Notes: a model not told the origin generated them from the letters alone. Shown: positions 1 to 57,140, counted from the whole stretch's first letter. The stretch is 61,045 nucleotides of DNA, filler included, from 4 parts of 4 records of this genome joined end to end with filler, not necessarily neighbours in it, one strand, 5' to 3'. A program made the numbers and translations.

Positions 1-62
1 CTAAACTCGTAACTCTAAACTCGTAACTCTAAAATCGTAATTCTTAACTCTAAACTCACAAC
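1..62. repeat. Degenerate heptamer tandem repeat (TCTAAAC/TCGTAAC type), about 9 units, truncated by window start
   Basis: Units read directly: ctaaac tcgtaac tctaaac tcgtaac tctaaaa tcgtaat tcttaac tctaaac tcacaac. Confidence 0.9.
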
Positions 63-90
63 TTTCACTGCTCAACCCTCACAACTCCTC

Positions 91-768
91 CTAAAGCTCT
101 TCATCTTCAAAGAACAAATGCGCGTGGGTAACACCGCCCTCTTTTTTCAAATCCGAAAGCATCTTGTTGCTGTCTTTGGCGTTTTTCATCTCCACATAAA
201 ACGAAAGTTCCATCATATCAGTTTCACCCAGTGTTTTGGAATTGATGAGCCTGTTTTTCCGGGTGTACTTTTTCAGTACATCAATGTAGGGTGGTTTGTG
301 GCCGTTATCCTCGAAAATAAAATGAAATTGCAACAGGTATTTTGTTTTGCGATGAAAAATCAGGTTGGTTTTTGAAAGCACGACCAGGATCGTTCCGATA
401 AGAATGGTAGAAGCTATAGCTACATCAAAAAGCCTTACGCCGCATGTCATCCCGATGGCAAGCGCAAAGAAAATGTACATGATGTCCTGGGTTTCCTTAA
501 CGGCAGTTCTGAACCGGATGATGGACATAGCGCCAACAAGCCCAAAAGCGCGGGCGAGGTTGTTGCCTATTACCAGAATCACGATGGTAGTAACCATTGC
601 CAGGGTAACCAACGAAAAAAGAAATGTTTGGGGGTAACCTGCTCCACGGTAAGAAACCTTGTAAAAAAAAGCAATTAATAAACCACAAACAAATGCCACA
701 AGGATTGATGAAATCACCTCTTCGACACTGGTGGGAAACTGAAAAATATTTTGTAAATCCTGCTCCAT
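91..768 (-). CDS. DUF4956-family membrane protein (MgtC-like TM region plus C-terminal ACT-like domain)
   Basis: Several TM helices; signature IGNNLARAFGLVGAMSIIRFRTAVKETQDI..IF..LAIGM..G; lies next to a VTC-domain gene, as is typical for this family. Confidence 0.85.
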   Translation of the reverse strand: MEQDLQNIFQFPTSVEEVISSILVAFVCGLLIAFFYKVSYRGAGYPQTFLFSLVTLAMVTTIVILVIGNNLARAFGLVGAMSIIRFRTAVKETQDIMYIFFALAIGMTCGVRLFDVAIASTILIGTILVVLSKTNLIFHRKTKYLLQFHFIFEDNGHKPPYIDVLKKYTRKNRLINSKTLGETDMMELSFYVEMKNAKDSNKMLSDLKKEGGVTHAHLFFEDEEL

Positions 769-780
769 GCAGATGGCGTT

Positions 781-908
781 ATTTGTTATTCGTTAATTGT
801 TATTGAGTTAAATGTAGTAATACGTGATCATTTATTGCCATTCATAGTCATTTGTGATCATTTTTGTAACTCAAAAAAATTCTAAACTCGTAATTCTAAA
901 TTCTAAAC
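781..908. repeat. Intergenic composite of short-period repeats: 7-mers (781-801), 10-mers (821-860) and TCTAAAC-type 7-mers (881-908)
   Basis: atttgtt attcgtt aattgtt; tacgtgatca tttattgcca ttcatagtca tttgtgatca; tctaaac tcgtaat tctaaat tctaaac. Confidence 0.8.
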
Positions 909-912
909 TCCC

Positions 913-1683
913 CTAAACACTCATCCCAAAAATCTTAATTCTTTCCTGTGGCCTGAAAATCTTATGGTGATCCAGCGAAAACTTATATTTCGATACCGAC
1001 TGCCGCGTTAGTTTGAACCGGAATAATATGTCGGACATCCAGGCAGGAAATGCTCCTGAAAACTTTAATTCAAGCACAAAATCCTTATAAAAGCAGGCTT
1101 CCAGCCCATCATTTCGAAACAACTCTCTAACCTTGGGAAAAGCAATCGAACGAATGTGTTTATCGAGGCTAACCCTGAACGACGGGTCAAATTTCGAAAA
1201 AAATGCTTCACGCTCATAAACCACCAAAACTACCGGCCTCAGCCCTTTCCCCTTTACATGAAAAAAAAACCGGCTTGCTTCATCATGTATTTCCGGGATA
1301 TGGCTGTCGATCACATATTTTTCGATATCACCTGTTTTAAAAAGATGCTGTATATCGTTCCAATACACCTTGCATCTGTTTTTGTCGATAAAATCGAGCT
1401 CCTTTCTTTTTATTTCAAGAAATACTTTGGGGTTACGGTCGGCATGATCATCCAGTGTGTTATAACTTCTTATCCTGATTTTTTTCCTTGATTTTATACC
1501 GTGTCGTTTATCCCAGTAGTAATCAAATTTAGTGGAGTCGAAATAAATGCTGCGCACGATATACTCATGGTGAAGCGTTTCAAGCGGTGCATTTGGATCC
1601 TCATCAACAAAACTCAAAATCGCCTTGCGCAAATGTTGAAGATGCTCATTGGGAACCAAATATTTAAATTCGTTACGCATCAT
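913..1683 (-). CDS. VTC / polyphosphate polymerase domain protein (CYTH/TTM superfamily)
   Basis: Motifs RNEFKYLV, Y.VRSIYFDS, RKKIRIRSY, FLEIKRK, YEREAF, RVSLD..IR, VLELKF, SVSKY. Confidence 0.88.
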   Translation of the reverse strand: MMRNEFKYLVPNEHLQHLRKAILSFVDEDPNAPLETLHHEYIVRSIYFDSTKFDYYWDKRHGIKSRKKIRIRSYNTLDDHADRNPKVFLEIKRKELDFIDKNRCKVYWNDIQHLFKTGDIEKYVIDSHIPEIHDEASRFFFHVKGKGLRPVVLVVYEREAFFSKFDPSFRVSLDKHIRSIAFPKVRELFRNDGLEACFYKDFVLELKFSGAFPAWMSDILFRFKLTRQSVSKYKFSLDHHKIFRPQERIKIFGMSV

Positions 1684-2772
1684 TTACATCCACTTATTAA
1701 AAAAACCAAACCAACTCATAATATAATCACGCAACAAAATCTTCCCGGCGTCCAATTCACCTTTAAACACAACACCTGGTAGCAATTCAGCTTCATGATC
1801 GCGTATTGCTGCAGTTACGATAAAAGTTTGCTTACCTCCGGCTACACTGATGTGGTTGCTGATCTGGATCACCTCCGATTTAAAAGGTTTTTTTTGCCCC
1901 AGCACAGTGCTGTGCACTTGCTGTCCGACATATACCCTGTCTCGGTCATTCAACCCTACCGGCATTTTTATGATAAGTTCATCCATCGATTCGATGATCA
2001 TTAGCGTATCGGCAGCATATGAGTTTTGGAAAATCCCGGTTATCGGGGATATGATGGTTTGCAATTCCAGTTTCTCTTCAAGGTCACTGATCTGTGTTTG
2101 AATCTTTTCGATTTCCGCTTCAACCATATTGATGGTTTCCGGCTTCTCGCCTGACATGGCAGATTCCAGTTCAGCTTTTTTGATTTCCACCTCTGCTTCC
2201 GAAAGCCTGAGTACACGTTCCTGGTCTTCAAAATCCTGCTCAGGAATCACCTCCTGCTTATAAAGTTCCTGCTGCCTTGCAAATTCTCTGTTTTGTTTCC
2301 TGGCATCTATCTCTGCATACGATAATCGTCGCCTGGCTAATTCGACAAACTCAGCCTTCTCTCCGGATTGATAACTGGCCAGTAATGCCTTTTTTACATC
2401 TAGCTCACGCCTCATTTCGTTAAGAAGCATGTGGGTTTCGTTGGAAAATATTTTCCCTATCGTATCGCCTTTTTGGATTATGGATTTTGTAAGGATTTCC
2501 GGGTTTATTTCAAAAAGAACATCATCACCTCTTGAAAATTCGCGGGTTTGATACACATGGCTTACACCTGCAACCAGATCGATCTGTGTGTTCATGATCT
2601 GTCCATTGGACCCGGCAAAAAGCACCCACTGCTTTGCCGGATAGATTTTACCCGCAATAGAGATGTTTGAAGTAATATGAATTGGGATAAAGTAAATAAC
2701 AGCGACTGCCGCCAGTAGTAAAACCCAGAGTATGTTTTTATAAAATAAGTCTGAAATTCGAGATGGGCTCAT
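1684..2772 (-). CDS. HlyD-like membrane-fusion / periplasmic adaptor protein
   Basis: N-terminal TM anchor, lipoyl-like KGDTIG half-motif, long coiled-coil hairpin, TIISPITG, V.VGQ.V beta-barrel; stop codon directly abuts the VTC gene ATG. Confidence 0.75.
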   Translation of the reverse strand: MSPSRISDLFYKNILWVLLLAAVAVIYFIPIHITSNISIAGKIYPAKQWVLFAGSNGQIMNTQIDLVAGVSHVYQTREFSRGDDVLFEINPEILTKSIIQKGDTIGKIFSNETHMLLNEMRRELDVKKALLASYQSGEKAEFVELARRRLSYAEIDARKQNREFARQQELYKQEVIPEQDFEDQERVLRLSEAEVEIKKAELESAMSGEKPETINMVEAEIEKIQTQISDLEEKLELQTIISPITGIFQNSYAADTLMIIESMDELIIKMPVGLNDRDRVYVGQQVHSTVLGQKKPFKSEVIQISNHISVAGGKQTFIVTAAIRDHEAELLPGVVFKGELDAGKILLRDYIMSWFGFFNKWM

Positions 2773-2969: not shown

Positions 2970-3890
2970 TCAGCCCTTATTGATGAGGCCGTTTGATTCT
3001 GCACATTCCATGTATTCAACCTGCAAGGTTACATGATAGATATTGAATTCCTGATGTAAAATTGCAGCAATTTGATTTCTGATTATTTCTGTCTCACTAA
3101 TTCGAATGTCCTGGCCGGTATTTACGTGTGCTTCAAAAAAGAGCGATTTGTCGTCGAGCCGCCAAACATGCATATGATGCACATCGTCAACACCATCAAT
3201 TTTTTGCAGGCGGTTTTGTATTTCAATCAAATCCAGATCCGGTGGAGTTGCCTGCATCAGAATGCCATAGGTTTCTTTTAGCACATGCCAGGTATGCATA
3301 AAGATGTAGATGCCGACACCCATTGTGATAACCGGATCGATCCAGTAAATTTCATACACCCACATGAAAACTCCACCGATAATTACAGCAACGGAAGAGA
3401 GTGTATCGCCAAGCAGATGCAGATAAGCGGCTTTTACATTCAGGTTTTCCCGGCGGTTGTTTTTAAGTATAAGCACCGACGCCAGATTACCAAGCAGCCC
3501 AACGGTTGCAACAATCAGCATGATCAGACTCTTCACCGGGGCCGGTTCCATCAACCGATGATACGCCTCGTAAAAAAGAAATATACAAATCGAGATCAGA
3601 ACCAGTGCATTAAAAAACGCTGCTAGTATCTGGAATCGTTTGTATCCGAAAGTATTCCGCTCATTAGCCTTTTGCTTACTAACCCGGTTTGCAATCCAGG
3701 CTATAGCAATGGCTGTGGTGTCGCCTAAATTGTGTAACGCATCGGAAAGCAAGGCCAGGCTGTTGGAAATAAATCCCCCGATCACCTGTGCAATGGTGAT
3801 AGACAGGTTCAATAAGATTACCCAGAAAAGTTTTTTGCCCTGGATATCTTTGGGGGCATGGGTGTGATTATGGTGGTGATGGTGTGTCAC
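2970..3890 (-). CDS. czcD: Cation diffusion facilitator (CzcD/ZitB-like Zn/Co/Cd exporter)
   Basis: His-rich N-terminus, SLALLSDALHNLGD, TFGYKR, AYLHLLGD, HHMHVW; probable GTG start at 3890 because the ORF-track TTG at 3899 falls inside the promoter element. Confidence 0.92.
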   Translation of the reverse strand: MTHHHHHNHTHAPKDIQGKKLFWVILLNLSITIAQVIGGFISNSLALLSDALHNLGDTTAIAIAWIANRVSKQKANERNTFGYKRFQILAAFFNALVLISICIFLFYEAYHRLMEPAPVKSLIMLIVATVGLLGNLASVLILKNNRRENLNVKAAYLHLLGDTLSSVAVIIGGVFMWVYEIYWIDPVITMGVGIYIFMHTWHVLKETYGILMQATPPDLDLIEIQNRLQKIDGVDDVHHMHVWRLDDKSLFFEAHVNTGQDIRISETEIIRNQIAAILHQEFNIYHVTLQVEYMECAESNGLINKG

Positions 3891-3896
3891 AATTTG

Positions 3897-3904
3897 CAAA
3901 GCTA
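3897..3904 (-). promoter_or_regulatory. Bacteroidota -7 element (TAGCTTTG) for the CDF gene
   Basis: TAnnTTTG match ending 7 nt before the GTG. Confidence 0.55.
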
Positions 3905-3997: not shown

Positions 3998-6900
3998 ATG
4001 AAAAATACTTTCTTCACTTTGATATTTCTGGCTTATGCCACGCTAATTTTTGGACAAACCAACACCGTTGTTCATCATAAAATACAGGCTGAGGTAAATC
4101 CCTCAACATCAGAAATCACGGTAATAGATACCATATTTCCAGAGGTTGAGACCCCTTCAACATTTAAGTTAAATGCTGTATTCACACCCAAAAGCCTCAC
4201 CAAAGGCGTGAAAATCAAAATGGTGAAAAACAATGCAGAAGCCAAAGATATTGGTATGGACCGTGATGATACAGACGGAAGCACCGGCCTGAAAATCAAT
4301 GAATGGGAAATAAATGGCAAAGTAACTCCGATCGTGCTGAGGTATAGCGGAACCATCACATCTGCCATCAAACAAAGCGAAGAAAATTACCAGCGTGGTT
4401 TTGCCGAATCACCGGGAATAATCAGCGATATTGGCGTGTATCTGGCCGGCTCAACCTGGTGGGTACCTGTTTTCGAAAACAGCACAATGACCTTTTCGCT
4501 CACAACCATTCTTCCGGAAGGTTGGAAAAATGTAACCCAGGGGAAACGCACTTTCGAGGAGATAAAAAATGAAAAACATACAGATATATGGGTTTGCAAT
4601 CACGCACAGGAGGAGATATTTCTAATTGCTGCCGAATTTAACGAATACAGCCATAAAATGAACAGCGGTGTGGATGCCATGGCATTTTTGCGCACCCCGG
4701 ACGAAGGCCTTGCCAATAAATACCTGGAAGTAACCGAGCAATACATGGAAATGTATGTGGAAATGCTGGGTGATTACCCCTACTCCAAATTTGCGCTTGT
4801 AGAGAATTTCTGGGAAACCGGTTACGGAATGCCATCCTTCACCCTGCTTGGCGAGAAGATCATCAGGTTTCCGTTCATCCTCCATTCCTCCTATCCGCAC
4901 GAATTGCTGCACAACTGGTGGGGCAACAGCGTATATATTGATTTTAAATCGGGCAACTGGTGCGAAGGTATTACGGCATATCAGGCCGACCACCTTATCA
5001 AAGAGGGCCGTGGTGCCGGCGAAGAATACCGCCGCGAAACGCTGCAAAAATTCAGCAATTTTGTCAACACTGAAAATGATTTCCCCCTTGTGGAATTCCG
5101 CTCCCGATATGATGGTGCAAGCGAATCAATCGGGTATGGAAAGTCCCTGATGATGTGGCATATGCTGAGGCGGAAAATGGGTGATGAAAATTTTATGGAA
5201 GGATGGCGCCATTTTTACCAAAATAATAAGTTTGAGGTGGCATCGTACAATGATATCAAGGCATCGATGGAAGCGGTAACCGGGATTAGCCTTAAGCCGT
5301 TTTTCCAGCAATGGACCACCCGGAAAGGTGCTCCTGAACTCGCCATACAAAACATAGGAACCGATATGTCGGGCGGCATGCATCGCATTTTGCTCTTTTT
5401 GGAACAAACACAGGAGGGCGAGCCTTTCAACATCGACGTACCTATACATGTGGCCACCGAAAACGGGGTAGGTACCTTTATTTTCAATATGAACCTGAAA
5501 ACGCAGGGATTTCAGATTTCGGTGGATGGCAAACCCCTGCAACTGAGTGTTGACCCACAATACGATGTTTTCAGAATTCTGGATCCCGCCGAGGTGCCGC
5601 CTACCCTTTCCAAAATCTGGGCCAGCGAAAAGAACCTCATGATCATCCCGTCGAAAGCCAACAAAACACAACAGCGTATTTACCAGGATTTTGCCGAAAA
5701 ATGGCAACAGGCGGATGGTGATGAATTTAAAGTTGTACTGGATTCTGATATCGATCAGCTACCCAAAAATCAAACTGCCTGGATACTTGGATACGAAAAT
5801 AAATTTGCCAATAATGTCCAAAAGCAGCTTCTGGAATACAATGCAGGAATTACCGGTGATTCGGTTACGTTGGGGAAAAACAGCCATCTTAAATCCGGGA
5901 AAAGCGTAGTGCTGACTTTAGCCAAACCCGGCGATCTCACCCAACAGGACATTTTTATTGCTTTCGATAATGAGGCTGCCATCGGAGGTTTAACCCGAAA
6001 ACTGCCTCACTACGGAAAATACAGCTACCTTGCATTTAATGGCGATGAACCCACAAACATCGATAAAGGACAGTGGCCCATCACCCAATCACCACTGGTT
6101 AAAACTTTTGATCAAAAAGCCGAAATTCCATCACTGACTCTCGAACGAGAACCTTTGGGGAAAATCAAGGCGCTCTTTTCGGAAAGCAGAATGAAAGATG
6201 TGGTGAAACACCTGGCGTCAGGAGATATGAAAGGCCGTGGCATTGGAACGCCTGAACTGGATGAAGCGGCTGCATACATTGCTGACCATTTCGAAAAAGC
6301 AGGACTTAAACCCATCGATAAGGATTATTTCCAGGAATTTGAGCAGGGATTTCACGGCAAAGGACATTTTAATCTCAAAAATGTAATCGGAGTTATCCCG
6401 GGAACTGATCCAAAACTGGCTGATGAGCCTGTAGTGATAGCCGCCCATTACGATCACCTGGGAACCGGTTGGCCGGATGTGCATAAGGGTGATGAAGGAA
6501 AAATCCATTTTGGTGCCGACGACAATGCCAGCGGCGTTGCCACACTCATCGAACTGGCCTATTCCATGGGGAACACCACCAAACCCAAACGTACCATTGT
6601 TTTCCTGGCCACCACCGCCGAGGAAGCAGGGCTGATCGGGGCAAAGTATTTTGTGGATCACAGCAAGGATTATTTTGACGGCGATATTTTTGCCGCCGTA
6701 AACATGGACACCAACGGAAGTTTGTTCGATAAAAAACTAATGGTTTTGAATGGCAATTCAGCCCGCGAATGGAAATTCATTTTCATGGGTACCGATTATA
6801 CCACGGGCGTTTTATCTGAAGTGATCACCCAGCCGCTGGATGCCAGCGATCAGGTGGCCTTTATCGAAAAGGGGATTCCGGCGGTGCAGTTGTTTACAGG

Positions 6901-7345
6901 CCCCACCGAAAACTACCATCGACCCACCGACACCTGGGAAAAGCTGGATTACAAAGGCATGGTGAAAGTAGCAACCGTGGCAAAAGAGGTCATGGTTTAC
7001 CTTGCCGGGCGCACCGACCCCATGAACTTCCAGGGTGAAGAGAAAACCGGTGAAGAAAAGCCTGAAGCCACCCAGAGAACCCGGAAAGCCAGCACAGGAT
7101 CAGTTCCTGATTTTGCCCACCAGGGCGACGGCGTGAAAATTGGCAGCGTTATGCCCGGATCTGCCGGTGAAAAAGCAGGCCTGCTGGCTGGTGATATCAT
7201 CATGGAAATGGACGGCACAAAGCTTACAGGCCTCCGCCAATACTCCGACCTCCTCAAAAAATACCAGCCCGGTGATGTGGTGAAACTTGTTGTGGATCGT
7301 AACGGCGAAATGAAAGAAATAGAGCTGGAACTTGGAGAACGATAG
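3998..7345 (+). CDS. Secreted multidomain peptidase: M1 aminopeptidase + M28 peptidase + C-terminal PDZ
   Basis: Signal peptide; GYGMP and HELLH..NWCEG (M1 zinc motif); AHYDHLG, GADDNASG, AEEAGL, YH (M28); GSAGEKAGLLAGDII (PDZ). Confidence 0.88.
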   Translation: MKNTFFTLIFLAYATLIFGQTNTVVHHKIQAEVNPSTSEITVIDTIFPEVETPSTFKLNAVFTPKSLTKGVKIKMVKNNAEAKDIGMDRDDTDGSTGLKINEWEINGKVTPIVLRYSGTITSAIKQSEENYQRGFAESPGIISDIGVYLAGSTWWVPVFENSTMTFSLTTILPEGWKNVTQGKRTFEEIKNEKHTDIWVCNHAQEEIFLIAAEFNEYSHKMNSGVDAMAFLRTPDEGLANKYLEVTEQYMEMYVEMLGDYPYSKFALVENFWETGYGMPSFTLLGEKIIRFPFILHSSYPHELLHNWWGNSVYIDFKSGNWCEGITAYQADHLIKEGRGAGEEYRRETLQKFSNFVNTENDFPLVEFRSRYDGASESIGYGKSLMMWHMLRRKMGDENFMEGWRHFYQNNKFEVASYNDIKASMEAVTGISLKPFFQQWTTRKGAPELAIQNIGTDMSGGMHRILLFLEQTQEGEPFNIDVPIHVATENGVGTFIFNMNLKTQGFQISVDGKPLQLSVDPQYDVFRILDPAEVPPTLSKIWASEKNLMIIPSKANKTQQRIYQDFAEKWQQADGDEFKVVLDSDIDQLPKNQTAWILGYENKFANNVQKQLLEYNAGITGDSVTLGKNSHLKSGKSVVLTLAKPGDLTQQDIFIAFDNEAAIGGLTRKLPHYGKYSYLAFNGDEPTNIDKGQWPITQSPLVKTFDQKAEIPSLTLEREPLGKIKALFSESRMKDVVKHLASGDMKGRGIGTPELDEAAAYIADHFEKAGLKPIDKDYFQEFEQGFHGKGHFNLKNVIGVIPGTDPKLADEPVVIAAHYDHLGTGWPDVHKGDEGKIHFGADDNASGVATLIELAYSMGNTTKPKRTIVFLATTAEEAGLIGAKYFVDHSKDYFDGDIFAAVNMDTNGSLFDKKLMVLNGNSAREWKFIFMGTDYTTGVLSEVITQPLDASDQVAFIEKGIPAVQLFTGPTENYHRPTDTWEKLDYKGMVKVATVAKEVMVYLAGRTDPMNFQGEEKTGEEKPEATQRTRKASTGSVPDFAHQGDGVKIGSVMPGSAGEKAGLLAGDIIMEMDGTKLTGLRQYSDLLKKYQPGDVVKLVVDRNGEMKEIELELGER

Positions 7346-36636: not shown

Positions 36637-38169
<1,533 letters not shown>

Positions 38170-38177
38170 TTAAATGC

Positions 38178-38900
38178 CTACCCTATAAGTCTAAAACTTG
38201 CGCCCAGTTTCCAGAGGAATGCCCCTGTAACACCACCACATATCGGTGCAATTATAGGAAGCCACGCATAACCCCAGTCACTGGCACCTTTACCTGGAAT
38301 TGGCATGATTGCATGGGCAATTCGAGGGCCAAGATCACGAGCTGGATTGATTGCATAACCTGTTGGTCCTCCGAGGGACAGGCCAATGGCCATGATGAAA
38401 AAACCTACGATGAGTGGATTGAGTCCTTGGGAAAATTCGTTTTGGCCAATACCGAGTAAGATGAACAGGAGGCAGGCAGTGCCAACGAACTCACAGATAA
38501 AATTGGATGTGGTGCATTTAATGGCTGGACCAGTTGAAAATACGGCAAGTTTTAACCCTGCATCTTCAGTCTCTTTCCAGTGCGGCATATATGCTGCCCA
38601 ACAGATAATTGCACCAACAAAAGCTCCTGTCATCTGACCAGCTACGTAAACAGGAACATTAGCCCATGGGAACGCACCAATTGATGCAAGACCTATGGTT
38701 ACAGCCGGATTGATGTGTGCCCCGGAAATTGGGCCGGCAACGTAGATAGCAAAGGCAACTGCAAACCCCCAGCCCATGGTTATGACGATCCAGCCGCTGT
38801 TTTGCCCTTTGGATTTTTCCAGCAAAACGTTTGCAACAACGCCGCATCCAAAAAGTGCCAGAACCATTGTTCCAACCAATTCACTTAAAAACAAATTCAT
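38178..38900 (-). CDS. glpF: Glycerol uptake facilitator (MIP/aquaglyceroporin)
   Basis: SGAHINPAVT and GYAINPARDLGPR; true start ATG 38900 (MNLFLSELVGT) after GGAG. Confidence 0.95.
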   Translation of the reverse strand: MNLFLSELVGTMVLALFGCGVVANVLLEKSKGQNSGWIVITMGWGFAVAFAIYVAGPISGAHINPAVTIGLASIGAFPWANVPVYVAGQMTGAFVGAIICWAAYMPHWKETEDAGLKLAVFSTGPAIKCTTSNFICEFVGTACLLFILLGIGQNEFSQGLNPLIVGFFIMAIGLSLGGPTGYAINPARDLGPRIAHAIMPIPGKGASDWGYAWLPIIAPICGGVTGAFLWKLGASFRLIG

Positions 38901-39031
38901 AGTCAACTCCCACTCCAATAAAGGTTGTATAATAAGTTCGACCCCTCCAGAATCGAACGATAGCCCTATAAGAGGTGCCTGTCGCTGCTTCATTGTTGCA
39001 TTGCTGCAGCAGCGTAACTTCAGTAGTTCCG

Positions 39032-40597
39032 TTAATTGACGATATAATTTCCAGCGAGTTTGGTGAATTTTTCCACCTGATCTTTTATCCACGCCTCATC
39101 TTTGCCAAGCTCTTTGGCCATTATTTCTGCTGCTTCAGGAGCTACTTCGACAGCGGCTTTGGCATTGAGTATAAGAGCACGAGTACGTCTTGAAAGTACG
39201 TCGGAAACGGTTAAGGCCCATTCATTTTTGACTGCCCATACAACTTCGAGCCAGGAATACTGGAGCTTCTCATGCATTTTTCGGTCAAGCTCTGGATAAT
39301 CTGCAGCGAGAGCCTTGATATCAGCAATATCACTGCCGTAAACATGCATGTGATCCTTGGGATCGAACTCTTCTGTGTATCCGTGGAGTTTTACGTCTTT
39401 AGTAGGTGAGGGGCGAAAGGTATGTCCTCCCATTCTTATGGCGTTATCGATACAATCTTCTGCCATATGTCTATAGGTAGTCCACTTCCCACCAGCTATG
39501 GTGAGCAACTTACCAGGAGAGATCGTAAGGTAATGATCCCGTGCGAGGTTGGAAGTCTTACCATCAGAGTCGCCTGCTGCGATAAGAGGCCTTATGCCAG
39601 TGAATACACTCAAGACATCGTCACGGGTTATTGGATGTTCCAGGTAGCGGGCAGAGTGGTCAACCAGAAAGTCAATCTCTTCTTCCAGAGGCTTTGGCTC
39701 CATACATACGCCGTTGATTGGTGTATCTGTCGTACCGACAACAACTTTATCGTGCCATGGTACAAAGAAGATAACCCTTCCATCATCGGTCTTAGGCACC
39801 ATGATCCCTGTTTGTCCGCCCAAAAACTTACGGTCAATAACGATATGGATACCCTGGCTTGGTGCAATAAGATTTTTATGGTCGGCGTTATCCATATTCA
39901 TGACGTCATCGGTAAAAATACCAGTGGCGTTGATAACAGCCTTTGCATGCAACTCGTAGGACGTGTCGCTCAGGGTATCAGTAACCTTAACACCGTTGAC
40001 ACTGCCTATATCATTTTTTAACAACTCGGTTACTTTTGCGTAGTTGACCGGGCAGCCGCCATGATCAGCCATGGTTCGTGCCAGAGTCACAGCTAATCGT
40101 GCGTCGTCAAACTGGCCGTCATGATAAGTCACCCCACCTTTCAGTTTTTTAGTGCGTACCCCTGGAACTTCTTTAATAACGGATTTACTGGAAAGAATTT
40201 GTGATTTTCCAAAACTGTACTTGCGTGCAAGCATGTCATAGGCCTTGAGCCCTATACCGTAATAGGGGAGCCCCCACCATTTGTAATCTGGAACAATAAA
40301 TTTTTGGTTGTAGCACATGTGAGGGGCATTCTTCAGTAAAATGCCGCGCTCTTTAAGAGCCTCCATGACGAGCGAAATATTCCCTTGCTGCAGGTATCTC
40401 ACCCCGCCATGAACCATTTTTGTGCTGCGACTGGATGTTGCTTCTGCAAAATCTCCCTGCTCAAGCACCAAAACCGAATACCCTCTTGCCGCAGCATCAA
40501 GTCCCGAACCCAATCCGGTTGCACCCCCGCCAACAATAATGAAATCCCAAACCTTTGAGCTGTCTTCCATCCTGGAGATACATTCTGAACGTTTCAT
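39032..40597 (-). CDS. glpD: FAD-dependent glycerol-3-phosphate dehydrogenase/oxidase
   Basis: IIVGGGATG, TSSRSTKMVHGGVRYL, DGQFDDAR, GGKWTTYR; ATG 40597 after GGAGGG. Confidence 0.95.
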   Translation of the reverse strand: MKRSECISRMEDSSKVWDFIIVGGGATGLGSGLDAAARGYSVLVLEQGDFAEATSSRSTKMVHGGVRYLQQGNISLVMEALKERGILLKNAPHMCYNQKFIVPDYKWWGLPYYGIGLKAYDMLARKYSFGKSQILSSKSVIKEVPGVRTKKLKGGVTYHDGQFDDARLAVTLARTMADHGGCPVNYAKVTELLKNDIGSVNGVKVTDTLSDTSYELHAKAVINATGIFTDDVMNMDNADHKNLIAPSQGIHIVIDRKFLGGQTGIMVPKTDDGRVIFFVPWHDKVVVGTTDTPINGVCMEPKPLEEEIDFLVDHSARYLEHPITRDDVLSVFTGIRPLIAAGDSDGKTSNLARDHYLTISPGKLLTIAGGKWTTYRHMAEDCIDNAIRMGGHTFRPSPTKDVKLHGYTEEFDPKDHMHVYGSDIADIKALAADYPELDRKMHEKLQYSWLEVVWAVKNEWALTVSDVLSRRTRALILNAKAAVEVAPEAAEIMAKELGKDEAWIKDQVEKFTKLAGNYIVN

Positions 40598-40989
40598 ACA
40601 CCCTCCCCACTTGTTTAGTTTCGGCAAGGGAAAGCCGAAATGGTTTGAAAAACAGAATAATTATCTATCTGTCTATTGGCCAGATTATCCAGTCGCTTTC
40701 CAAATAGGCTCGTCTTACTAATAGAGACGCAACCTAACAATCCTTATTCGTTTATAAACATACCGTGGCACAAAATGAACACAAAGTCAACAAACAGTTT
40801 TCATTTGTGAAAAAAAACGTCATTGCCGATCAAAAGAAGGACACCTCTCTCGATCTCGACACCGCTGGCTGGCCACCTCTTCAAGTCATGCAAAAACAGT
40901 CAGTTAATATTTAACAACGCAACAAGCATGATCACTCTCGTGTTCATTTACCCCTTCCAAACGACCAGAAACGAAGAAAAAGGGCGCGA

Positions 40990-41009
40990 AATGTTCCTTT
41001 GCGCACATT
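40990..41009. promoter_or_regulatory. Candidate GlpR operator
   Basis: AATGTTCCTTTGCGCACATT matches 17/20 positions of the GlpR-type palindrome WATGTTCGWTWWCGAACATW; weaker sites at 40743-40762 and 40798-40813. Confidence 0.55.
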
Positions 41010-41176
41010 GCGCTTGTTACAAACACGGTCAGATGGTAAAACTGAAAACAATGAACAAGACCTTTTTTAGGCGAACACCTCTTTCAGGCTCGCTTTTTAC
41101 GCAACGTTGAAATAAAGAGCGTTTTAACTTTCAAACCAAACCACACCTTTTCGACATTGAAAACGAGGAAGCTTTT

Positions 41177-42007
41177 TTGAACGATACAACCCCCCTTAAT
41201 GAACATAGAGGCTCCACATTCACCCTGGATTCGCTCTCCAAAAGACAACGTGAAATTCTTACCATGGTGAACGAACAGGGTTTTGCAACCATCGAAGCTC
41301 TGGCAAGCCACTTTGATGTCACCCCCCAGACTATTCGGCGCGATATCAACCGACTCTGTGACTGCAAGCTCCTTCAGCGTTATCACGGAGGTGCCAGCAG
41401 GTCCTCCAGTGTTGAGAACGTTGATTACAGTACGCGTAAAAACATTCTCAACCTGGAAAAGAAACGTATAGCCGAAATGGTGGCAAAGCAGATACCCGAC
41501 CGCGCCTCACTGTTCATAAACCTTGGAACCACCACTGAAGAGGTTGCCAAGTCTCTGGCCAACCACAAGAAACTGCGAGTTATTACCAATAATCTCAATG
41601 TGGCACTGACCATGAGCAGTAATAAAGATTGTGACGTCATCATTGCTGGGGGCATGGTAAGAAGTAGAGACAAGGGGATTACCGGAGAGGCAACAGTAGA
41701 GTTTATCCGCCAGTTTAAGGTTGATTATGGCATTATTGGCGTTTCAGGGATAGACGAAGACGGAACTCTACTCGATTATGATTACCATGAAGTTCGAGTG
41801 GCGCGTGAAATTATCAATAATTCCCGCAACGTCTTTCTCGTCACAGACCACACCAAGTTCACCAGAAATGCCATGGTGCGTATAGCAGACTTTTCAGGAA
41901 TTGATGCTGTTTTCACTGACAAGAAGCCCCCTAAGACTTTCAGGGATATGCTTAAAAGAAAAGATGTAGCTCTCTTTGTTTCAGAGAGTAACGAAGAACA
42001 TGTGTGA
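41177..42007 (+). CDS. glpR: DeoR-family glycerol-3-phosphate regulon repressor
   Basis: RQREIL, FDVTPQTIRRD, RYHGGA, LFINLGTTTE, QFKVDYGIIG; divergent from glpDFK. Confidence 0.93.
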   Translation: MNDTTPLNEHRGSTFTLDSLSKRQREILTMVNEQGFATIEALASHFDVTPQTIRRDINRLCDCKLLQRYHGGASRSSSVENVDYSTRKNILNLEKKRIAEMVAKQIPDRASLFINLGTTTEEVAKSLANHKKLRVITNNLNVALTMSSNKDCDVIIAGGMVRSRDKGITGEATVEFIRQFKVDYGIIGVSGIDEDGTLLDYDYHEVRVAREIINNSRNVFLVTDHTKFTRNAMVRIADFSGIDAVFTDKKPPKTFRDMLKRKDVALFVSESNEEHV

Positions 42008-47708: not shown

Positions 47709-48263
47709 TCAGAGATACTCCGTAAACAGCTCTTTAGAGGCTCCGGAAATAACGGCTTTGTTCACCAGCATGCCGTCGTCTTTAATTGTTTCCACACCAC
47801 TATTAACAGAGGCTGTAACAGAACCCACATCTCCGGCGAGCAGTAGAAACCCTTTCCCTCCTACAGCCATGGAGAGATGCACTCTAAACAAGGTTACGCC
47901 AGCGGCTTTTACGGCAGCATCTGCCGCACGAAGAATTGATGCAGCAGAAAAAGTTTCAATAACACCCAAGGCTTGGCCTTTGGATGCAGCCAACTCCACA
48001 CAACCTGAGATTGCAGGAAATATTGCCTGATCAATATTTGGAAGAATGAGCTGTTCTACCAAAAAGCCTTTAGAGGCCGATACACCTGCTTCAATCGCAG
48101 CATTGACAGAGCCCACCTTACCACCAATAACAATCATGTACTTACCAGGACATATCGTGCGGGCAACAAGCAACTCAACATCTGCAGCCTTAATGACGGC
48201 GTCCTGGGCAACAAACCCTGCCGCAATGCTCGACAATTCCAACATTCCAACTGCACCTTTCAT
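47709..48263 (-). CDS. pduT: Tandem-domain BMC shell protein, PduT-like (Fe-S pore)
   Basis: AVGMLE..SIA.G, TICPGKY, second domain ALGVIETFS..AADAAVKAA, GGKG. Confidence 0.88.
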   Translation of the reverse strand: MKGAVGMLELSSIAAGFVAQDAVIKAADVELLVARTICPGKYMIVIGGKVGSVNAAIEAGVSASKGFLVEQLILPNIDQAIFPAISGCVELAASKGQALGVIETFSAASILRAADAAVKAAGVTLFRVHLSMAVGGKGFLLLAGDVGSVTASVNSGVETIKDDGMLVNKAVISGASKELFTEYL

Positions 48264-49579
48264 GATATCTCCAGTCTCTCAATAACTATTGCTTTCTGGT
48301 TTATCTCAACAACAACACCGTCTACTGATGCGTGAATTTCTGCTCCCAGTTTTTCCCCAACTGTGGCTATTTTTTCTTCTTTTTTTACCTGTTGCCCTTG
48401 TTTCACCAGAGGTTCAGCCGGTGCACCAATATGCTGCTGCAGTAGAATTTCATACAGCTTAGCAGCAGTGGTAAACTTCACCAAAGGCCCTTTATCCTGA
48501 AATTGCAGCAGGTCTAAACGTTCTTTCACTCGCTTGGTAGGCGTTCTGCGATACTCAATAAGCGGATGCGCTACAGCTGTCTTATCCCCCTGATACTGCA
48601 CTTTTTTCTGGATCAACTTTCGTTTACTATTTACACAGGCTTGAGATGGATATAACCCCTCAGGACAGGCTACAATGGTGCACAGGTTACACTCACAGCA
48701 GTAAAGCGTATGTGCAGCACTGCTATCCGGCTCAACCTCTCCATTACTGAAGAGAAGATTTCGCATGGCAACATGCGGTCTCACAGGGTGACCAAGAAGG
48801 GCACGGGGACAGAGCTCGCTGCAAAAAGAACATTGATCACAAGAGGATTTACCAATTTTATTAACCTTCGTTTCCACAGCGCCGGTCTTCATCTTTGTAA
48901 CAAGGACATGATCCGGAGGGAGGACGATAAGTCCTCCGGTGGTCTTGGTAACAGGCTCATCAAGATTATCAGTCAGCCTGCCCATCATTGGTCCGCCCAC
49001 CAACAGCTCGTAAACATCCAGCTTTGGCTTTGCAAACTGCAGCACTTCTCGAAAAGAAACACCCAGGGGAACATCAATAGATATTGGATTTTCCACTTCC
49101 CCACCAACAGTGAGCAGCTTTGAAACCACTGGCCCACTCTTAGCTATATTGTAGAGAGTCTCAACATTCTGTACTATGACGTTTTGGGTAAGAGGTAATT
49201 CCCCAGGCTGGACAACTCTCCCGGTTGCCTCAAAGATGAGATTAACTTCATCTCCTGCCGGATAGAAATCACGAAGAGGAAAAATGGTTATTATATCAGG
49301 AATCGTCTTTTTAAGGTGTTGGATCACCTTTGCATGCTTTTCCTTGATCCCAATAATTATCTCTTTTGCTCGTGCCAGTTCTGCAGCATACAACAGCCCC
49401 TTAACAAACAACTCCGTTTTGTGGAGCAGTATCTCTACATCTTTATGCAGAAGAGGTTCGCATTCGGCAGCATTGACAATGAGCATCTCTGCTTCACTGG
49501 TGAGCTTCACATAACAGGGAAACCCTGCACCGCCTGCTCCAACAATACCTTTTTCTTTAATTTCTTCTGTTGAGATCAT
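48260..49579 (-). CDS. pduS: PduS / RnfC-like cobalamin reductase
   Basis: GIVGAGGAGFP, NAAECEPLL, GGPMMG, CDQCSFCSELCP, CCECNLC..CP, QHIGAPA. Confidence 0.9.
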   Translation of the reverse strand: MISTEEIKEKGIVGAGGAGFPCYVKLTSEAEMLIVNAAECEPLLHKDVEILLHKTELFVKGLLYAAELARAKEIIIGIKEKHAKVIQHLKKTIPDIITIFPLRDFYPAGDEVNLIFEATGRVVQPGELPLTQNVIVQNVETLYNIAKSGPVVSKLLTVGGEVENPISIDVPLGVSFREVLQFAKPKLDVYELLVGGPMMGRLTDNLDEPVTKTTGGLIVLPPDHVLVTKMKTGAVETKVNKIGKSSCDQCSFCSELCPRALLGHPVRPHVAMRNLLFSNGEVEPDSSAAHTLYCCECNLCTIVACPEGLYPSQACVNSKRKLIQKKVQYQGDKTAVAHPLIEYRRTPTKRVKERLDLLQFQDKGPLVKFTTAAKLYEILLQQHIGAPAEPLVKQGQQVKKEEKIATVGEKLGAEIHASVDGVVVEINQKAIVIERLEIS

Positions 49580-49610
49580 TGGCAACCCATCGTCTTCTCA
49601 GATACTATCT

Positions 49611-49907
49611 TTAAACGCGGTAGTAATTTTGAATCTTGTCTATTGCTGCTTTGACAGCCGCAGGGTTGCCAAAAATTGCCAGCATTTGCACATGTTGAGG
49701 ACAATTTCCAGACACCAGTACCGCTTTTACATCACTGGCCTTTTCTGCCATGTCCGCAGCGCAATAAAGTTCTATGAGGTGTGCCTGGACTAGCCCAACA
49801 GCACCCCACTTACCCAATTGCACATCATCTTTTGCTGCGGAGTTGATGTTGTTAACCAACATTCCCATGAAGGTCTTTGAAGGTGCCTGGATGATTTCTA
49901 TTTTCAC
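49611..49907 (-). CDS. grpU: GrpU-like BMC hexamer shell protein (Fe-S-binding GxCPQ motif)
   Basis: II..PS..GAVGLVQ..AADMAEKASDV..SGNCPQH..AIFG. Confidence 0.75.
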   Translation of the reverse strand: MKIEIIQAPSKTFMGMLVNNINSAAKDDVQLGKWGAVGLVQAHLIELYCAADMAEKASDVKAVLVSGNCPQHVQMLAIFGNPAAVKAAIDKIQNYYRV

Positions 49908-49910
49908 GTC

Positions 49911-50327
49911 CTAAGCTCCAATCAGTTCCTCAAACTTCTTCACTGCGGCTTCAGCACATTGGATATCCTGGGCAACACTGCCGCCACTGACTCCAACACC
50001 ACCAACCACCTTTCCATCCTGAACGAGCGGTATGCCACCTCCAAATATCACAACCCTGCAGTTATCAGTGGTATTGAGGCCAAACAACTCTGCTCCAGGC
50101 GCACAGGCAGTTGCCAGGACTTCTGTGGGTACTTTTACAGCTAAGGCAGTATAAGCCTTGTTGAGGGCGATATCGACGCTGACCAGCAAAGCGTCATCCA
50201 TACGCTGAGAAGCGACCATATTGCCCCCTTCATCAACCACTGATACCACCATAGGAGTACCGATTTCTTCTGCAACTTTCTTTGCTGCTGCTATCATTTC
50301 CAAAGCATTGTCCAGTTTGCTTGCCAT
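49911..50327 (-). CDS. GlcG/HbpS-family heme-binding protein (PduO-C / OrfY-like)
   Basis: VVSVVDEGGN..RMDDA..S.DIALNKAYTA..FGGGIP..GVSGGSV.QD; ATG 50327 after GGAGG. Confidence 0.88.
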   Translation of the reverse strand: MASKLDNALEMIAAAKKVAEEIGTPMVVSVVDEGGNMVASQRMDDALLVSVDIALNKAYTALAVKVPTEVLATACAPGAELFGLNTTDNCRVVIFGGGIPLVQDGKVVGGVGVSGGSVAQDIQCAEAAVKKFEELIGA

Positions 50328-50385
50328 TTTCATTCCTCCGAGATTCAATTCTTTAAGCATTGTTGACCGGTATTAATGTACGGGA

Positions 50386-51795
50386 TCAAATAATGCGAAA
50401 CCCTTCCACCAATACGCATCGTCTTGCACGAGTAAAAGAGCGTGCAGAAGTCAAACCTTCTCCAGTTGGACCAGCTATGGTAAATGAGGTGTGTCCTTCA
50501 CCTCCAAGACCAATTCCAGCATAGCAAGGACCGTTTTTTACAAAAATGGTTGTCTGCACAGCACGTGCAAACCGGGTTAAATATTCAACGTTAGTAGAGT
50601 GCATAATGGCTGTATGTCGGTTGCCCTGTTCAACCTCAACCGCAAAATCGATTGCTTCGTCAATGTTGCTCACCGCCACAATGGGGATAACCGGCATCAT
50701 TTGCTCTTTCCACACAAGCGGGTGGTCTTTGGGTGCTCTAAATATGGCCAAACGACACTCTTCGCCAACATTGATGCCGACCTCTCCCAATATCTTCTGT
50801 ATGTCTTTGCCGATACAGGCAGGGTTAGCCTTGCCGTCTTTCACTACGAGGGCGGTAACCATTTTTTCCTCTTCCTCATTGAGCAAGTAGGCTTTGCCAG
50901 TTTCCACCATGAACTTGATTAAATTTTCAGCAACCTCCTCAACAACGATCACTTCTTTTTCACAGATACAGAATATATTGTTGTTGATGCTGGCGCCATT
51001 TACGATGCATTCTGCGGCTTGACGAAGATTGGCGGTTTCGTCAACCAGGGCTGGTGGGTTTCCTGCACCTGCGCCAATGGCTTTTTTCCCTGAGGAAAGT
51101 ACAGCTTTTACAACAGGTTTACCACCAGTGGCCACCAACATGTTGATATCAGGATGATTTATTATCTCCTTAGCTCTGTCTAAAGTCGGTTCTGCAATGG
51201 CAGTGATTGTTGCTGGCGGACCGCCCGCATCAACGATTGCTTTATGAAGTACCGCCACCATTTTTGCAGAAGTGGCTTTAGCACTGGGATGCGGATTAAA
51301 TACAACGGTATTACCCGCTGCCACCATACTGATGGTATTGTTAATCAACGTTCCGGTTGGGTTGGTAATGGGAGTGAGTGCACCTATTACTCCTACCGGT
51401 GCTGGCTCGACCAAGGTCAGGCCAGAGTCTCCTGTTTTGGCGCAAGGAACCAGGTCTTCCGTGCCTGGTGTTTTCTCAGCGCAAAGAATATTTTCCCGTA
51501 CTTTATCGTCATACCTGCCGTACCCGGTATCCTCAATGGCAAATGCTGATAATTCTTCATTATTTTCAAGACATGCTGCTCTGATGGAAGCAATAATTTT
51601 CTCACGCTGCTCAATCGAGAGCAGGAGCAATTGCTTCTGTGCCGCTCTGGCACAGACTACCGCATCATCCACATTATCATACATGCCGTTAGCGGATGGA
51701 TTCACTCCAGAAGAAGGAGATGACGTATCTTTGGTTGCCAACTGCGCTACAACTTTCTGTACCAGATCTGTTATCATTTCACTTTGTGTTGTCAT
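50386..51795 (-). CDS. pduP: CoA-acylating aldehyde dehydrogenase (PduP/EutE)
   Basis: N-terminal encapsulation-type helix; KTPGTEDL, TPITNPT, ATGG, GAGAGNPP, FCICEKE, FTIAGPTGEG. Confidence 0.93.
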   Translation of the reverse strand: MTTQSEMITDLVQKVVAQLATKDTSSPSSGVNPSANGMYDNVDDAVVCARAAQKQLLLLSIEQREKIIASIRAACLENNEELSAFAIEDTGYGRYDDKVRENILCAEKTPGTEDLVPCAKTGDSGLTLVEPAPVGVIGALTPITNPTGTLINNTISMVAAGNTVVFNPHPSAKATSAKMVAVLHKAIVDAGGPPATITAIAEPTLDRAKEIINHPDINMLVATGGKPVVKAVLSSGKKAIGAGAGNPPALVDETANLRQAAECIVNGASINNNIFCICEKEVIVVEEVAENLIKFMVETGKAYLLNEEEEKMVTALVVKDGKANPACIGKDIQKILGEVGINVGEECRLAIFRAPKDHPLVWKEQMMPVIPIVAVSNIDEAIDFAVEVEQGNRHTAIMHSTNVEYLTRFARAVQTTIFVKNGPCYAGIGLGGEGHTSFTIAGPTGEGLTSARSFTRARRCVLVEGFRII

Positions 51796-51862
51796 CTCAA
51801 ACTCTCCTATATCCTTCTTGTACTGTTTATCTGTAATGTCTTATTTTGATTAATTATCCGTG

Positions 51863-52423
51863 TTACCCGGCAGCAAGAAGTATGGCCCCTGTAACAACAG
51901 CAGCAATCTGTTCATCTGCACCTAATGTCTTTCTGACGATGTTTTCAATAGTGTGCGCGCTTACTTTATTCACTGGTGTTTTGGGCATTACCTGACGCAC
52001 TCTTTCTGCACAATTGATCATCGTGTTAAAGGATTCTACAGCTGGAGCAGCAACCTGTTCGTCTTCCTCAACAGATCCCCCACTCACCCCGATTGATCCA
52101 ACAACCTGATCACCGATACACAAAGGAAAACCGCCACCAAATAATATTAGCCTGCCTTGGTGGGTATTCTGAATTCCATACAGTGGTTGTCCTGGCAGAG
52201 ACAGCTCTCCAAGGGTCCTTGTACTCATCCGGAGAACGGCTGCTGTATAAGCTTTGGAAGCAGCTATTTCCCGGCTTACCGGAAGGGTGCTATCCATGAA
52301 CGTAAAATGAACCATTGATCCTTGGTCATCTGCGATGGCAATTGCCATGGGTACACCCACTTTTACAGCCTCGTGCTCTGCTATTTTGGCTACTATCTGG
52401 GCCACTGTATAAGTGAGTTTCAT
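51863..52423 (-). CDS. GlcG/HbpS-family heme-binding protein with C-terminal extension
   Basis: MAIAIADDQG..SREIAASKAYTA..LYGI..FGGGFP..GVSGGSVEED; ATGA overlap with pduO. Confidence 0.85.
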   Translation of the reverse strand: MKLTYTVAQIVAKIAEHEAVKVGVPMAIAIADDQGSMVHFTFMDSTLPVSREIAASKAYTAAVLRMSTRTLGELSLPGQPLYGIQNTHQGRLILFGGGFPLCIGDQVVGSIGVSGGSVEEDEQVAAPAVESFNTMINCAERVRQVMPKTPVNKVSAHTIENIVRKTLGADEQIAAVVTGAILLAAG

Positions 52424-52983
52424 GGTTTCTCCACTTGAAGAGTTTGCAGTACTGCATCTGTTATCCTAGACTCCACTTCCAATCCCCAGGCCATGATAAA
52501 CAAGAGGTCACTCAGCCGATTGAAATACTGCAGTAACACTTCAAAACTGTTGTGTTCTCTATTAAGGCTGACGATAAGCCTTTCACTGCGCCTGCATACT
52601 GTCCGTGCAACATGGACAGCAGCACTTGTGTTGGATTCCCCTGGTACGACAAAACGAGTTGGTAGGTTGTAAGTAGCTGTGTACTGATCAATCCATAGCT
52701 CTATTTTGGCTACATCCTGCACGGTCAACTGTTTTGCCAGATTCTGAGTATCACCAGCATGGGATAAGGCTGCACTGGCAGTAAAAATATCTTCTTGGAT
52801 TTCGTAGATGACAGGGGCAAATGGATCTCCTTTTGTCAGGGACCTTACCACCCCTAAATGTGCCTGCAGCTCATCAAGTGCTCCATAAGCTTCCACTCGA
52901 GGATCGTCTTTTGCAACTCTCCCTCCACTAAGCAGAGACGTTGTGCCCTTGTCTCCGCCTTTTGTATACACTTTAGCTGCCAT
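52420..52983 (-). CDS. pduO: ATP:cob(I)alamin adenosyltransferase (PduO type)
   Basis: KVYTKGGDKGTT, RVEAYGALDEL, HVARTVCRRSER, NRLSDLLF. Confidence 0.93.
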   Translation of the reverse strand: MAAKVYTKGGDKGTTSLLSGGRVAKDDPRVEAYGALDELQAHLGVVRSLTKGDPFAPVIYEIQEDIFTASAALSHAGDTQNLAKQLTVQDVAKIELWIDQYTATYNLPTRFVVPGESNTSAAVHVARTVCRRSERLIVSLNREHNSFEVLLQYFNRLSDLLFIMAWGLEVESRITDAVLQTLQVEKP

Positions 52984-53005
52984 TATTTACATTTACCCAG
53001 GCTAA

Positions 53006-53275
53006 TCAAACAATATCCAACTGGTCTATGATCCCTACAATGGTTGCATCAACAGGACACTTTTCCTTTTCCACAGCCTTGCTGGCATTACTCCCGGTGG
53101 TGACGATCACTTTTTCGCCTCGTCCAGCTCCAACAGCATCTATTGCAACAATAGGGCTTCCAGCAGGTTTTTGACTCTGGGGGTCCAAAGGTTGGATCAC
53201 CTGAATTTTTGAACCAACCAAGGCCTCATGTTTTTGTGTAGCGACTACTGTTCCAATAACTTCTGCTATGAGCAT
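53006..53275 (-). CDS. pduN: BMC vertex pentamer (EutN/PduN/CcmL)
   Basis: AEVIGTVVATQKH..L.G..VAIDAVGAG.GE.V..VDATIVGIID. Confidence 0.93.
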   Translation of the reverse strand: MLIAEVIGTVVATQKHEALVGSKIQVIQPLDPQSQKPAGSPIVAIDAVGAGRGEKVIVTTGSNASKAVEKEKCPVDATIVGIIDQLDIV

Positions 53276-53312
53276 GACATTGTCTCCTAACGCTTATAAA
53301 AGCAGGATCTGT

Positions 53313-54146: not shown

Positions 54147-54150
54147 TGTC

Positions 54151-55005: not shown

Positions 55006-55057
55006 GCTGTAACAACCTTCCAGGGGTAAAGTTAGAGAGTAGGATTTGTATACAGAC

Positions 55058-55684
55058 CTACTTCTTAGCGGCTTCCACACCGGTCACCTTAGCGATTGCA
55101 GCCTCTGCAGCTCCGGCAGCCCGCTCTATGTCGGACTGTCTGCCGCCAAGATACAGACGACCTACAGCACCAAAGACGCGACAGTCAACAAGGGTAACAT
55201 TGGAATTTTTCTCTGCCTCATTAGCTGCAAGAGCAATATAGGCAGCAGGTTGTACTTCAAGGATGTAAAGGTCCTGACCAGGCAAGAGCATGGAAGACAT
55301 CCTGGAAATATTTACCATCTGAGCGTGGTATGGATTTACTTTATTGATGATTTGCGAGCTAAGGACCTTTGGTTTAACCCGGTCAGTCATCTTTTTGCCC
55401 AAGGTCTTGAGCACTGCATCACCAGCATGTTTTACATCTGCCTGCTTTGTTGAATGAAATTCAAGAACGCCGAACACCCTTTCAACAACCATTAGCCCCG
55501 GCTGAACATCGGCGGACTTGACTACGGCATTGGTTATTTCATTAATGAGAACACCAGGAGCTATTTCAATAAATGTTGCAGCCATTCCCGGTACAGGGAT
55601 ATATCCTCTTGCATTGGCGCCAAGGTAGGCTGCAAATTGTGGTTGCAAACGATCAAGGTAAACAAAGGTGCGAAGATCAGTCAT
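55058..55684 (-). CDS. Permuted tandem BMC shell protein of the CcmP/CsoS1D (double-stacking) type
   Basis: DLRTFVYLDRLQPQFA, EIAPG, VVERVFG.LE.H, LEVQPAAY..AANEAEK, FGAVGRLYL.G. Confidence 0.85.
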   Translation of the reverse strand: MTDLRTFVYLDRLQPQFAAYLGANARGYIPVPGMAATFIEIAPGVLINEITNAVVKSADVQPGLMVVERVFGVLEFHSTKQADVKHAGDAVLKTLGKKMTDRVKPKVLSSQIINKVNPYHAQMVNISRMSSMLLPGQDLYILEVQPAAYIALAANEAEKNSNVTLVDCRVFGAVGRLYLGGRQSDIERAAGAAEAAIAKVTGVEAAKK

Positions 55685-57136: not shown

Positions 57137-57140
57137 CTGT

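Follow-up and report, generated by a model that had tools for sequence, protein, structure and literature searches.

The locus described here raises the question of whether three small bacterial genes, encoding a HlyD-like periplasmic adaptor, a VTC-domain enzyme and a DUF4956 membrane protein, could together make polyphosphate and export it across the cell envelope. The genes lie at the start of a 61,045-nucleotide stretch of DNA, filler included (the window), whose initial annotation described three co-oriented genes with the stop codon of the adaptor abutting the VTC start codon. Our gene calls confirm this arrangement on the minus strand, and the features of the locus are as follows.

2772-1684, minus strand: adaptor gene, 362 amino acids, first in gene order
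1683-913, minus strand: VTC gene, 256 amino acids, second in gene order
878-910: further copy of the repeat, between the VTC and DUF4956 genes
768-91, minus strand: DUF4956 gene, 225 amino acids, third in gene order
1..78, no strand assigned: short direct repeats with a 14-nt unit, non-coding, 3' of DUF4956
2970..3899, minus strand: CDF (ZitB-like) metal exporter gene, co-oriented, 197 bp upstream of the adaptor

The gap between the adaptor and VTC genes is zero, and 144 bp separate VTC from DUF4956. On the 3' side of DUF4956 just 90 non-coding, repeat-rich bases remain before the window start. A contig search with the single VTC protein returned two matches in total, both from uncultured Lentimicrobiaceae MAGs. 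In the closer of these loci (L001, VTC 87% identical to the window copy) the two genes after DUF4956, encoding a DUF2490 outer-membrane barrel and an exported protein, are convergent, so the operon probably ends after DUF4956. An operon that continues past the window edge to further partners, as the initial annotation expected, is therefore not supported. The CDF exporter is probably context and not a member of the module; among the adaptor- and DUF4956-selected loci compared, the only ones with it 5' of the adaptor are the window, L001 and L058. Scans of another 32 window proteins (E<=1e-12), and the earlier scan of three, identified no TolC, CotH or glycosyltransferase, and the ABC ATPase gene of the window lies 7 kb from the trio on the opposite strand. 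A scan of the locus for promoters and terminators gave results at chance level.

The three genes are a conserved operon, present in many Bacteroidota and related bacteria. Conservation of the adaptor next to the VTC-DUF4956 pair had been set in advance as a check able to overturn the proposal, and such conservation was found in each of three locus sets, all of which contain near-duplicates and loci that are not independent. A search of 301 Bacteroidales genomes with an adaptor profile found the adaptor in 19 of them, and these together with the window and L002 make 21 loci. VTC follows the adaptor in all 21, the full trio is present in 20, and the adaptor-VTC gap is -11 to 13 bp in 18. The exception to the full trio is genome G002, where adaptor and VTC lie together and the orthologous DUF4956 is on another contig. 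In a sample of the phylum the profile matched 37 of 401 genomes at 42 places, 40 of which were examined. The full trio occurs at 30 of 31 full-length adaptor matches, and none of nine partial, generic matches adjoins VTC or DUF4956. The remaining full-length match, L159 of genome G630, has the order adaptor-DUF4956-TolC, and no VTC match was found in that genome. The third set consists of the best 80 of 522 metagenome loci selected with DUF4956 and ranked by similarity to the query. Of these, 56 contain the trio, one has a rearranged adaptor and DUF4956, four lack the adaptor and 19 are too short, which leaves the trio in 56 of 61 informative loci among the best 80. VTC and DUF4956 occur without the adaptor in L120, L125 and L126. 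The genes flanking the trio vary, and GC content ranges from 0.27 to 0.69. A plasmid search returned four weak, Gram-positive matches. Statements below about whole genomes come from relatives such as G001, G002 and others, not from the window's own genome.

Profile searches agree with the domain assignments of the initial annotation. All three proteins score above the Pfam cut-offs: VTC with 129 bits (PF09359, cut-off 23), DUF4956 with 63 bits (PF16316, cut-off 30.6) and the adaptor marginally, with 23 bits (HlyD_3, cut-off 22.2). When a profile of 18 VTC relatives was compared with the PDB, the best match was Vtc4 (3g3q, E 6e-14), and all ten matches at E<=1 were Vtc2, Vtc3 or Vtc4 chains. 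Residues K7, R70, R72, K92, Y156, R158 and E205 align to Vtc4 K200, R264, R266, K281, Y359, R361 and E426. S231 and K232 correspond to Vtc4 S457 and K458 by motif position only, as the PDB alignments end before this region. The tunnel motifs named at the outset (ExK, RxRxY, EIK, YER, ELK and SKY) are all present and near-invariant in 104 relatives: R70, R72, K92, Y156, R158, E205 and K232 are kept in 104 of 104, S231 in 103 and K7 in 98, the other six having gaps. A cryo-EM study of the yeast complex lists the nine corresponding Vtc4 residues as ligands, and mutation of each except E426 leads to loss of polyphosphate (10.1101/2023.01.27.525886). The same study reports that the lysine of the SK motif separates active Vtc4 from Vtc2 and Vtc3 in yeast, and the combination R264A/R266A/E426N inactivates the VTC complex (PMC9911596). 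Residues needed for polyphosphate synthesis in yeast are thus kept in the bacterial protein, which supports reading it as a polymerase.

The tunnel residues are largely common to the whole triphosphate tunnel metalloenzyme (TTM) fold, which also includes hydrolases and cyclases, so polymerase activity stays a prediction. Additionally, Thr198 of Vtc4 is replaced by E5 in the bacterial protein, which brings it closer to the CYTH hydrolase motif. Both the shared residues and E5 count against the polymerase reading. No hydrophobic segment was found in the VTC protein, a single 256-amino-acid domain with neither an SPX domain nor a fused membrane part. From its sequence we predict a cytoplasmic TTM domain of a long, adaptor-linked type that acts as a polyphosphate polymerase.

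The structure model of the DUF4956 protein (pLDDT 75) contains five helices followed by a C-terminal beta-alpha-beta-beta-alpha-beta domain. The latter matches ACT folds, including the C-termini of MgtC proteins (7qa5, Z 8.0, rmsd 2.9, 84 residues aligned; 2lqj, Z 7.7, rmsd 3.4, 83 aligned). Weak matches to MgtC were obtained (E 1e-4 and 2e-6), and the MgtC/SapB profiles score below their cut-offs (22.9 bits against 31.4 in Pfam, 27.6 against 214 in NCBIfam), which points to remote homology only. No match of DUF4956 to Vtc1 was found by sequence or by fold, nor one of its membrane part to any channel, in fold searches whose lists were taken up by ACT-domain matches, and an Atlas search with residues 1-140 gave only leads below 0.8. 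R85 and R87 are present in 116 of 116 DUF4956 sequences, a set picked partly by the R85-x-R87 motif, in 44 of 44 sequences of the adaptor-selected loci, and also in 21 proteins of adaptor-less loci. The charge distribution suggests a topology with the N-terminus outside and the C-terminus inside, which would place the ACT domain and R85-x-R87 on the cytoplasmic side of the glycine-rich third helix. The likeness of this arrangement to the basic rings in the yeast VTC channel is one of analogy only. The protein appears to be an inner-membrane protein with five predicted helices of the MgtC/SapB type, and it is a candidate translocation channel. However, MgtC acts by binding PhoR (PMC6658541), and that the sole detected homolog is this regulator, not Vtc1, counts against a channel role. 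When longer DUF4956 proteins were sought as possible fusions, four matches came up among 1536 candidates. Two VTC-DUF4956 fusions were rejected as probable frameshift artefacts, having lost C-terminal VTC motifs and carrying linkers that look out of frame.

The model of the adaptor (pLDDT 85) matches MacA and EmrA with E-values of 1e-13 to 1e-11. It consists of an N-terminal membrane anchor, a beta-barrel, a lipoyl domain with insertions, a long alpha-hairpin and a C-terminal helix; the single hydrophobic segment lies near residues 8-40. Several NCBIfam adaptor families match, all below their cut-offs. Generic adaptors match the adaptor profile only from position 83 on, and the insertions in the lipoyl domain set the linked family apart. 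Judged by its modeled fold, the protein belongs to the membrane fusion proteins, in a subfamily linked to VTC and DUF4956. The family has 626 representatives at E<=1e-30, some generic adaptors surely included. The best 150 of these all have E<5e-85 and lengths of 292-387 amino acids, and no fusion was found among them. The nearest Atlas clusters are mostly from Ignavibacteriota and Bacteroidota.

The tip of the adaptor hairpin reads R166-x3-L170-x6-P177, and RxxxLxxxxxxS is a described TolC-binding motif in which the third position is called permissive (PMC3391258). Among 97 relatives R166 is invariant and L170 is kept in 90. Position 177 is serine or threonine in 70, proline, as in the window copy, in 16, and proline or alanine in 27. 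The hairpin is net acidic (-11 in the window copy, family median -3), which is unexpected for a duct carrying a polyanion and counts against a simple basic duct. Many TolC-family genes are present in each of the five genomes tested, and the trio probably borrows a TolC partner encoded elsewhere.

We surveyed the neighbors of 106 trio loci (76 selected by DUF4956 or the adaptor and 30 from the phylum sample), many of them on short contigs. The survey had been suggested for CotH, TolC and glycosyltransferase genes, and of these CotH is the commonest recurring neighbor (within 500 bp in 27 of 106 loci), while the other two are rarely adjacent. TolC adjoins the trio in three of 106 loci (L034, L044 and L092), where it directly follows DUF4956, as it also does in L159; L107 has a partial TolC upstream, found by Pfam and missed by our custom TolC profile. 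Genes for glycosyltransferases stand after the trio in L034 (GT2, GT8 and GT8, after TolC) and L049 (GT1) but are not the rule. In the loci surveyed, no gene for an ABC, RND or MFS pump belongs to the trio, and none recurs next to it. Genes for SdiA-regulated/phytase-like propellers occur within 500 bp in 14 of 106 loci, and other recurring genes nearby encode sulfotransferase-like proteins and glycoside hydrolases that are secreted.

CotH proteins belong to a kinase family and consume phosphate. Most of those linked to the trio have lamin-tail domains and end in a tail for type IX secretion. CotH genes are found in all 19 adaptor genomes, 18 of which have three or more, with per-genome numbers near seven being lower bounds (at least that many). 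Among the 301 Bacteroidales genomes, CotH is enriched in those with VTC (114 of 145, against 61 of 156 without VTC), in counts uncorrected for kinship, genome size and completeness. All five genomes tested also encode ppk1, so storage polyphosphate is already covered.

Most VTC genes in the 145 VTC-containing genomes are of a short type, which forms its own clade (support 1.0); the adaptor-linked VTCs form no single supported clade (0.33, midpoint root). In a sample of 19 short-type loci, made up of L012, L013 and 17 others chosen by hand on long contigs, a DUF2490 outer-membrane barrel is present in 15 and the adaptor in none. DUF2490 was seen once among the scanned neighbors of the trio. It was scored by Pfam scans, as a custom profile missed the L001 copy, and these scans covered 64 of 132 and 71 of 88 candidate neighbors, leaving out duplicates, proteins already scanned, recognizable proteins and antisense shadows. 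Because most of these short-type loci have DUF2490 without the adaptor and the scanned trio neighbors are nearly devoid of DUF2490, the adaptor and the barrel may be two alternative ways across the outer envelope.

Several known systems resemble the trio in part. The eukaryotic VTC complex (yeast Vtc4/Vtc3/Vtc1; PDB 3g3q, 7ytj, 8i6v) shares the homologous catalytic tunnel domain with its residues for polyphosphate synthesis, and the genetic coupling to a small membrane protein that has conserved basic residues at a predicted cytoplasmic helix end. However, the bacterial enzyme is a free domain without SPX or the fused three-helix membrane part and with E5 in place of Thr198, its membrane partner resembles MgtC, carries an ACT domain and showed no relation to Vtc1 in the searches, and the trio adds a periplasmic adaptor. 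MacAB-TolC and EmrAB-TolC share the adaptor fold, the membrane anchor, the arginine and leucine of the hairpin tip and, in a few loci, TolC in cis, whereas the trio has no ABC, RND or MFS pump gene and its adaptor carries the lipoyl-domain insertions. MgtC/SapB proteins match DUF4956 weakly over the membrane part and have a C-terminal ACT-like domain in common with it. However, DUF4956 falls below the family cut-offs, and MgtC is known as a protein-binding regulator and not as part of an export duct. In synthase-dependent secretion, as in the alginate system Alg8-Alg44-AlgK-AlgE, polymer synthesis is coupled to export with an adaptor-like subunit. The trio differs in having no glycosyltransferase and in the inorganic nature of the polymer proposed for it.

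The same VTC, DUF4956 and CotH set is in print: genes for CotH, a poly-phosphate polymerase and DUF4956 are described beside Gram-positive pel loci, and the available text of that report gives no function for the pair and names no adaptor (10.1101/768473). The trio loci differ in that they lack pel genes and that CotH is usually encoded elsewhere in the genome. DUF4956 is otherwise mentioned in PMC6848847 and, in the available text of PMC13454231 and PMC10434189, in table rows only; PMC7332688, as far as its available text goes, covers eukaryotic VTC only. In the literature searched, which excludes subscription journals, we found no description of an adaptor-linked VTC-DUF4956 unit, no tested function for bacterial VTC-domain genes and no biochemical data on any bacterial VTC protein. 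The trio is a well-conserved, undescribed gene unit.

The reading that we favor, to which we give a little under an even chance, is that the trio is a pump-less machine that couples the synthesis of polyphosphate to its export through both membranes. On the cytoplasmic side, the VTC enzyme would dock beneath an oligomer of DUF4956 and polymerize ATP into polyphosphate; as in yeast, elongation of the chain would push it across the membrane, here through DUF4956. A ring of adaptors would then duct the polymer to a shared TolC-type channel encoded elsewhere, and at the surface it would serve secreted CotH kinases or other proteins, most likely as a phosphate donor or substrate for the kinases. 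The gene unit, the folds and the kept residues are observed, and each functional step of this scheme is inferred. The initial annotation's proposal of synthesis and export draws support from the adaptor linkage, the TolC-binding arginine and leucine and the CotH neighbors; its channel component is weakened by a DUF4956 homolog that is the regulator MgtC and not Vtc1. Also counting against an export module are the adaptor-DUF4956-TolC locus in the VTC-less G630, the split in G002, the scarcity of adjacent TolC, Pro177 in the window copy and the 61 VTC-less genomes that have CotH. A broader version, in which the trio represents a new class of pump-less tripartite exporters with the polymerase supplying both cargo and driving force, an oligomeric MgtC-like pore in the inner membrane, an adaptor-TolC exit to the cell surface (a DUF2490 barrel in the sister clade), and polyphosphate as the phosphate donor of CotH, seems to us doubtful as a whole.

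Several of these observations fit other explanations. The VTC protein may be a triphosphatase, a cyclase or a short-chain enzyme, DUF4956 an MgtC-like scaffold or small-molecule transporter, and the adaptor with TolC an exporter of another small product, such as a nucleotide or phosphate donor for secreted kinases. E5, the MgtC homology and ACT domain of DUF4956, the acidic hairpin and the G630 locus would all suit this alternative. However, Vtc4 is the best profile relative and every PDB match at E<=1 is a Vtc2, Vtc3 or Vtc4 chain, and the SK motif, whose lysine marks the active yeast subunit (10.1101/2023.01.27.525886), is kept; we consider it somewhat unlikely. Polyphosphate could also be released only into the periplasm, the adaptor being a co-polymerase or scaffold that recruits no TolC. 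Alg44 is a subunit of this type for alginate, and the rarity of adjacent TolC and the proline or alanine at the third motif position would be consistent with such a role, as would the Gram-positive set, for which the available text names no adaptor (10.1101/768473). The invariance of R166 at the hairpin tip and the direct coupling of TolC to DUF4956 in four loci argue for TolC recruitment and make a periplasm-only role improbable.

The module might instead work inward, with secreted partners releasing phosphate or polyphosphate that the trio imports and converts, for example from polyphosphate and ADP to ATP. MgtC has been tied indirectly to phosphate uptake (PMC6658541), and the propellers, glycoside hydrolases and sulfotransferase-like proteins near the trio could be such partners. 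However, the commonest neighbor, CotH, would consume phosphate. Adaptor-TolC assemblies, moreover, are export ducts, and we regard uptake as distinctly improbable. That the genes are neighbors without a common function is most improbable and largely refuted: the split cases G002 and L051 and the adaptor-less L120, L125 and L126 would fit it, but linkage is near-complete in three separately selected sets and the short adaptor-VTC gaps persist while the flanks change.

If synthesis and export are indeed coupled in this way, the trio would provide a second, export-coupled bacterial route for polyphosphate besides PPK1/PPK2 and a first transport role for the MgtC-like fold. With only three small genes, the unit is directly testable. 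Bacterial VTC-domain genes are common (145 of the 301 Bacteroidales genomes sampled), and the module is relevant to how phosphorus is cycled in sediments and sludge. It would also be a possible source of phosphate for the many secreted CotH kinases, and if polyphosphate is their donor, this would explain how extracellular bacterial kinases run without extracellular ATP.

Besides the trio (an adaptor of the MacA/EmrA fold, a VTC-domain enzyme and a DUF4956 membrane protein), the window carries the following features.

1-78 and 878-910: intergenic short direct repeats with a 14-nt unit, either side of the DUF4956 gene
3998-7345: exported protein of 1115 aa in which M1 and M28 peptidase domains are combined with a PDZ domain
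36637-42007: glycerol uptake and kinase cluster
48260-61044: diol/glycerol dehydratase large subunit, reactivase, aldehyde dehydrogenase and an RnfC/Nuo51-like protein

The M1-M28-PDZ protein is also found 5' of the adaptor in a related locus, L002. The last gene set is similar to a microcompartment locus of the pdu type, here in a Bacteroidales genome.

In the closest relative (L001), two genes convergent to the trio (L001:5663-6941) encode a DUF2490 barrel and an exported protein of 194 aa. The latter matches no Pfam family, and its N-terminal KFEREYRI is reminiscent in sequence of the CYTH motif. G001 and G002 each contain a second VTC-DUF4956 pair, of the short type (L012:1805-6161; L013:8845-13129). 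Both pairs are followed 3' by a highly divergent CotH-like exported protein, which has no Pfam match and weakly matches the CotH profile built in this analysis, and by an ankyrin-metallophosphoesterase.

Adaptor, DUF4956 and TolC genes lie in tandem in genome G630 (L159:4432-7700), the whole of which yields zero VTC matches. This arrangement is either what remains of a module in decay or an indication that the duct does not need the enzyme to function.

Secreted arylsulfotransferase-like proteins and CotH are recurrent near VTC-DUF4956 in six loci (L035, L036, L044, L125, L154 and L163). At L034:1904-8283, TolC comes immediately after the trio and is followed by one GT2 and two GT8 glycosyltransferases and by an ABC transporter. 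For that genome alone, this order suggests a link between the trio and surface glycans.
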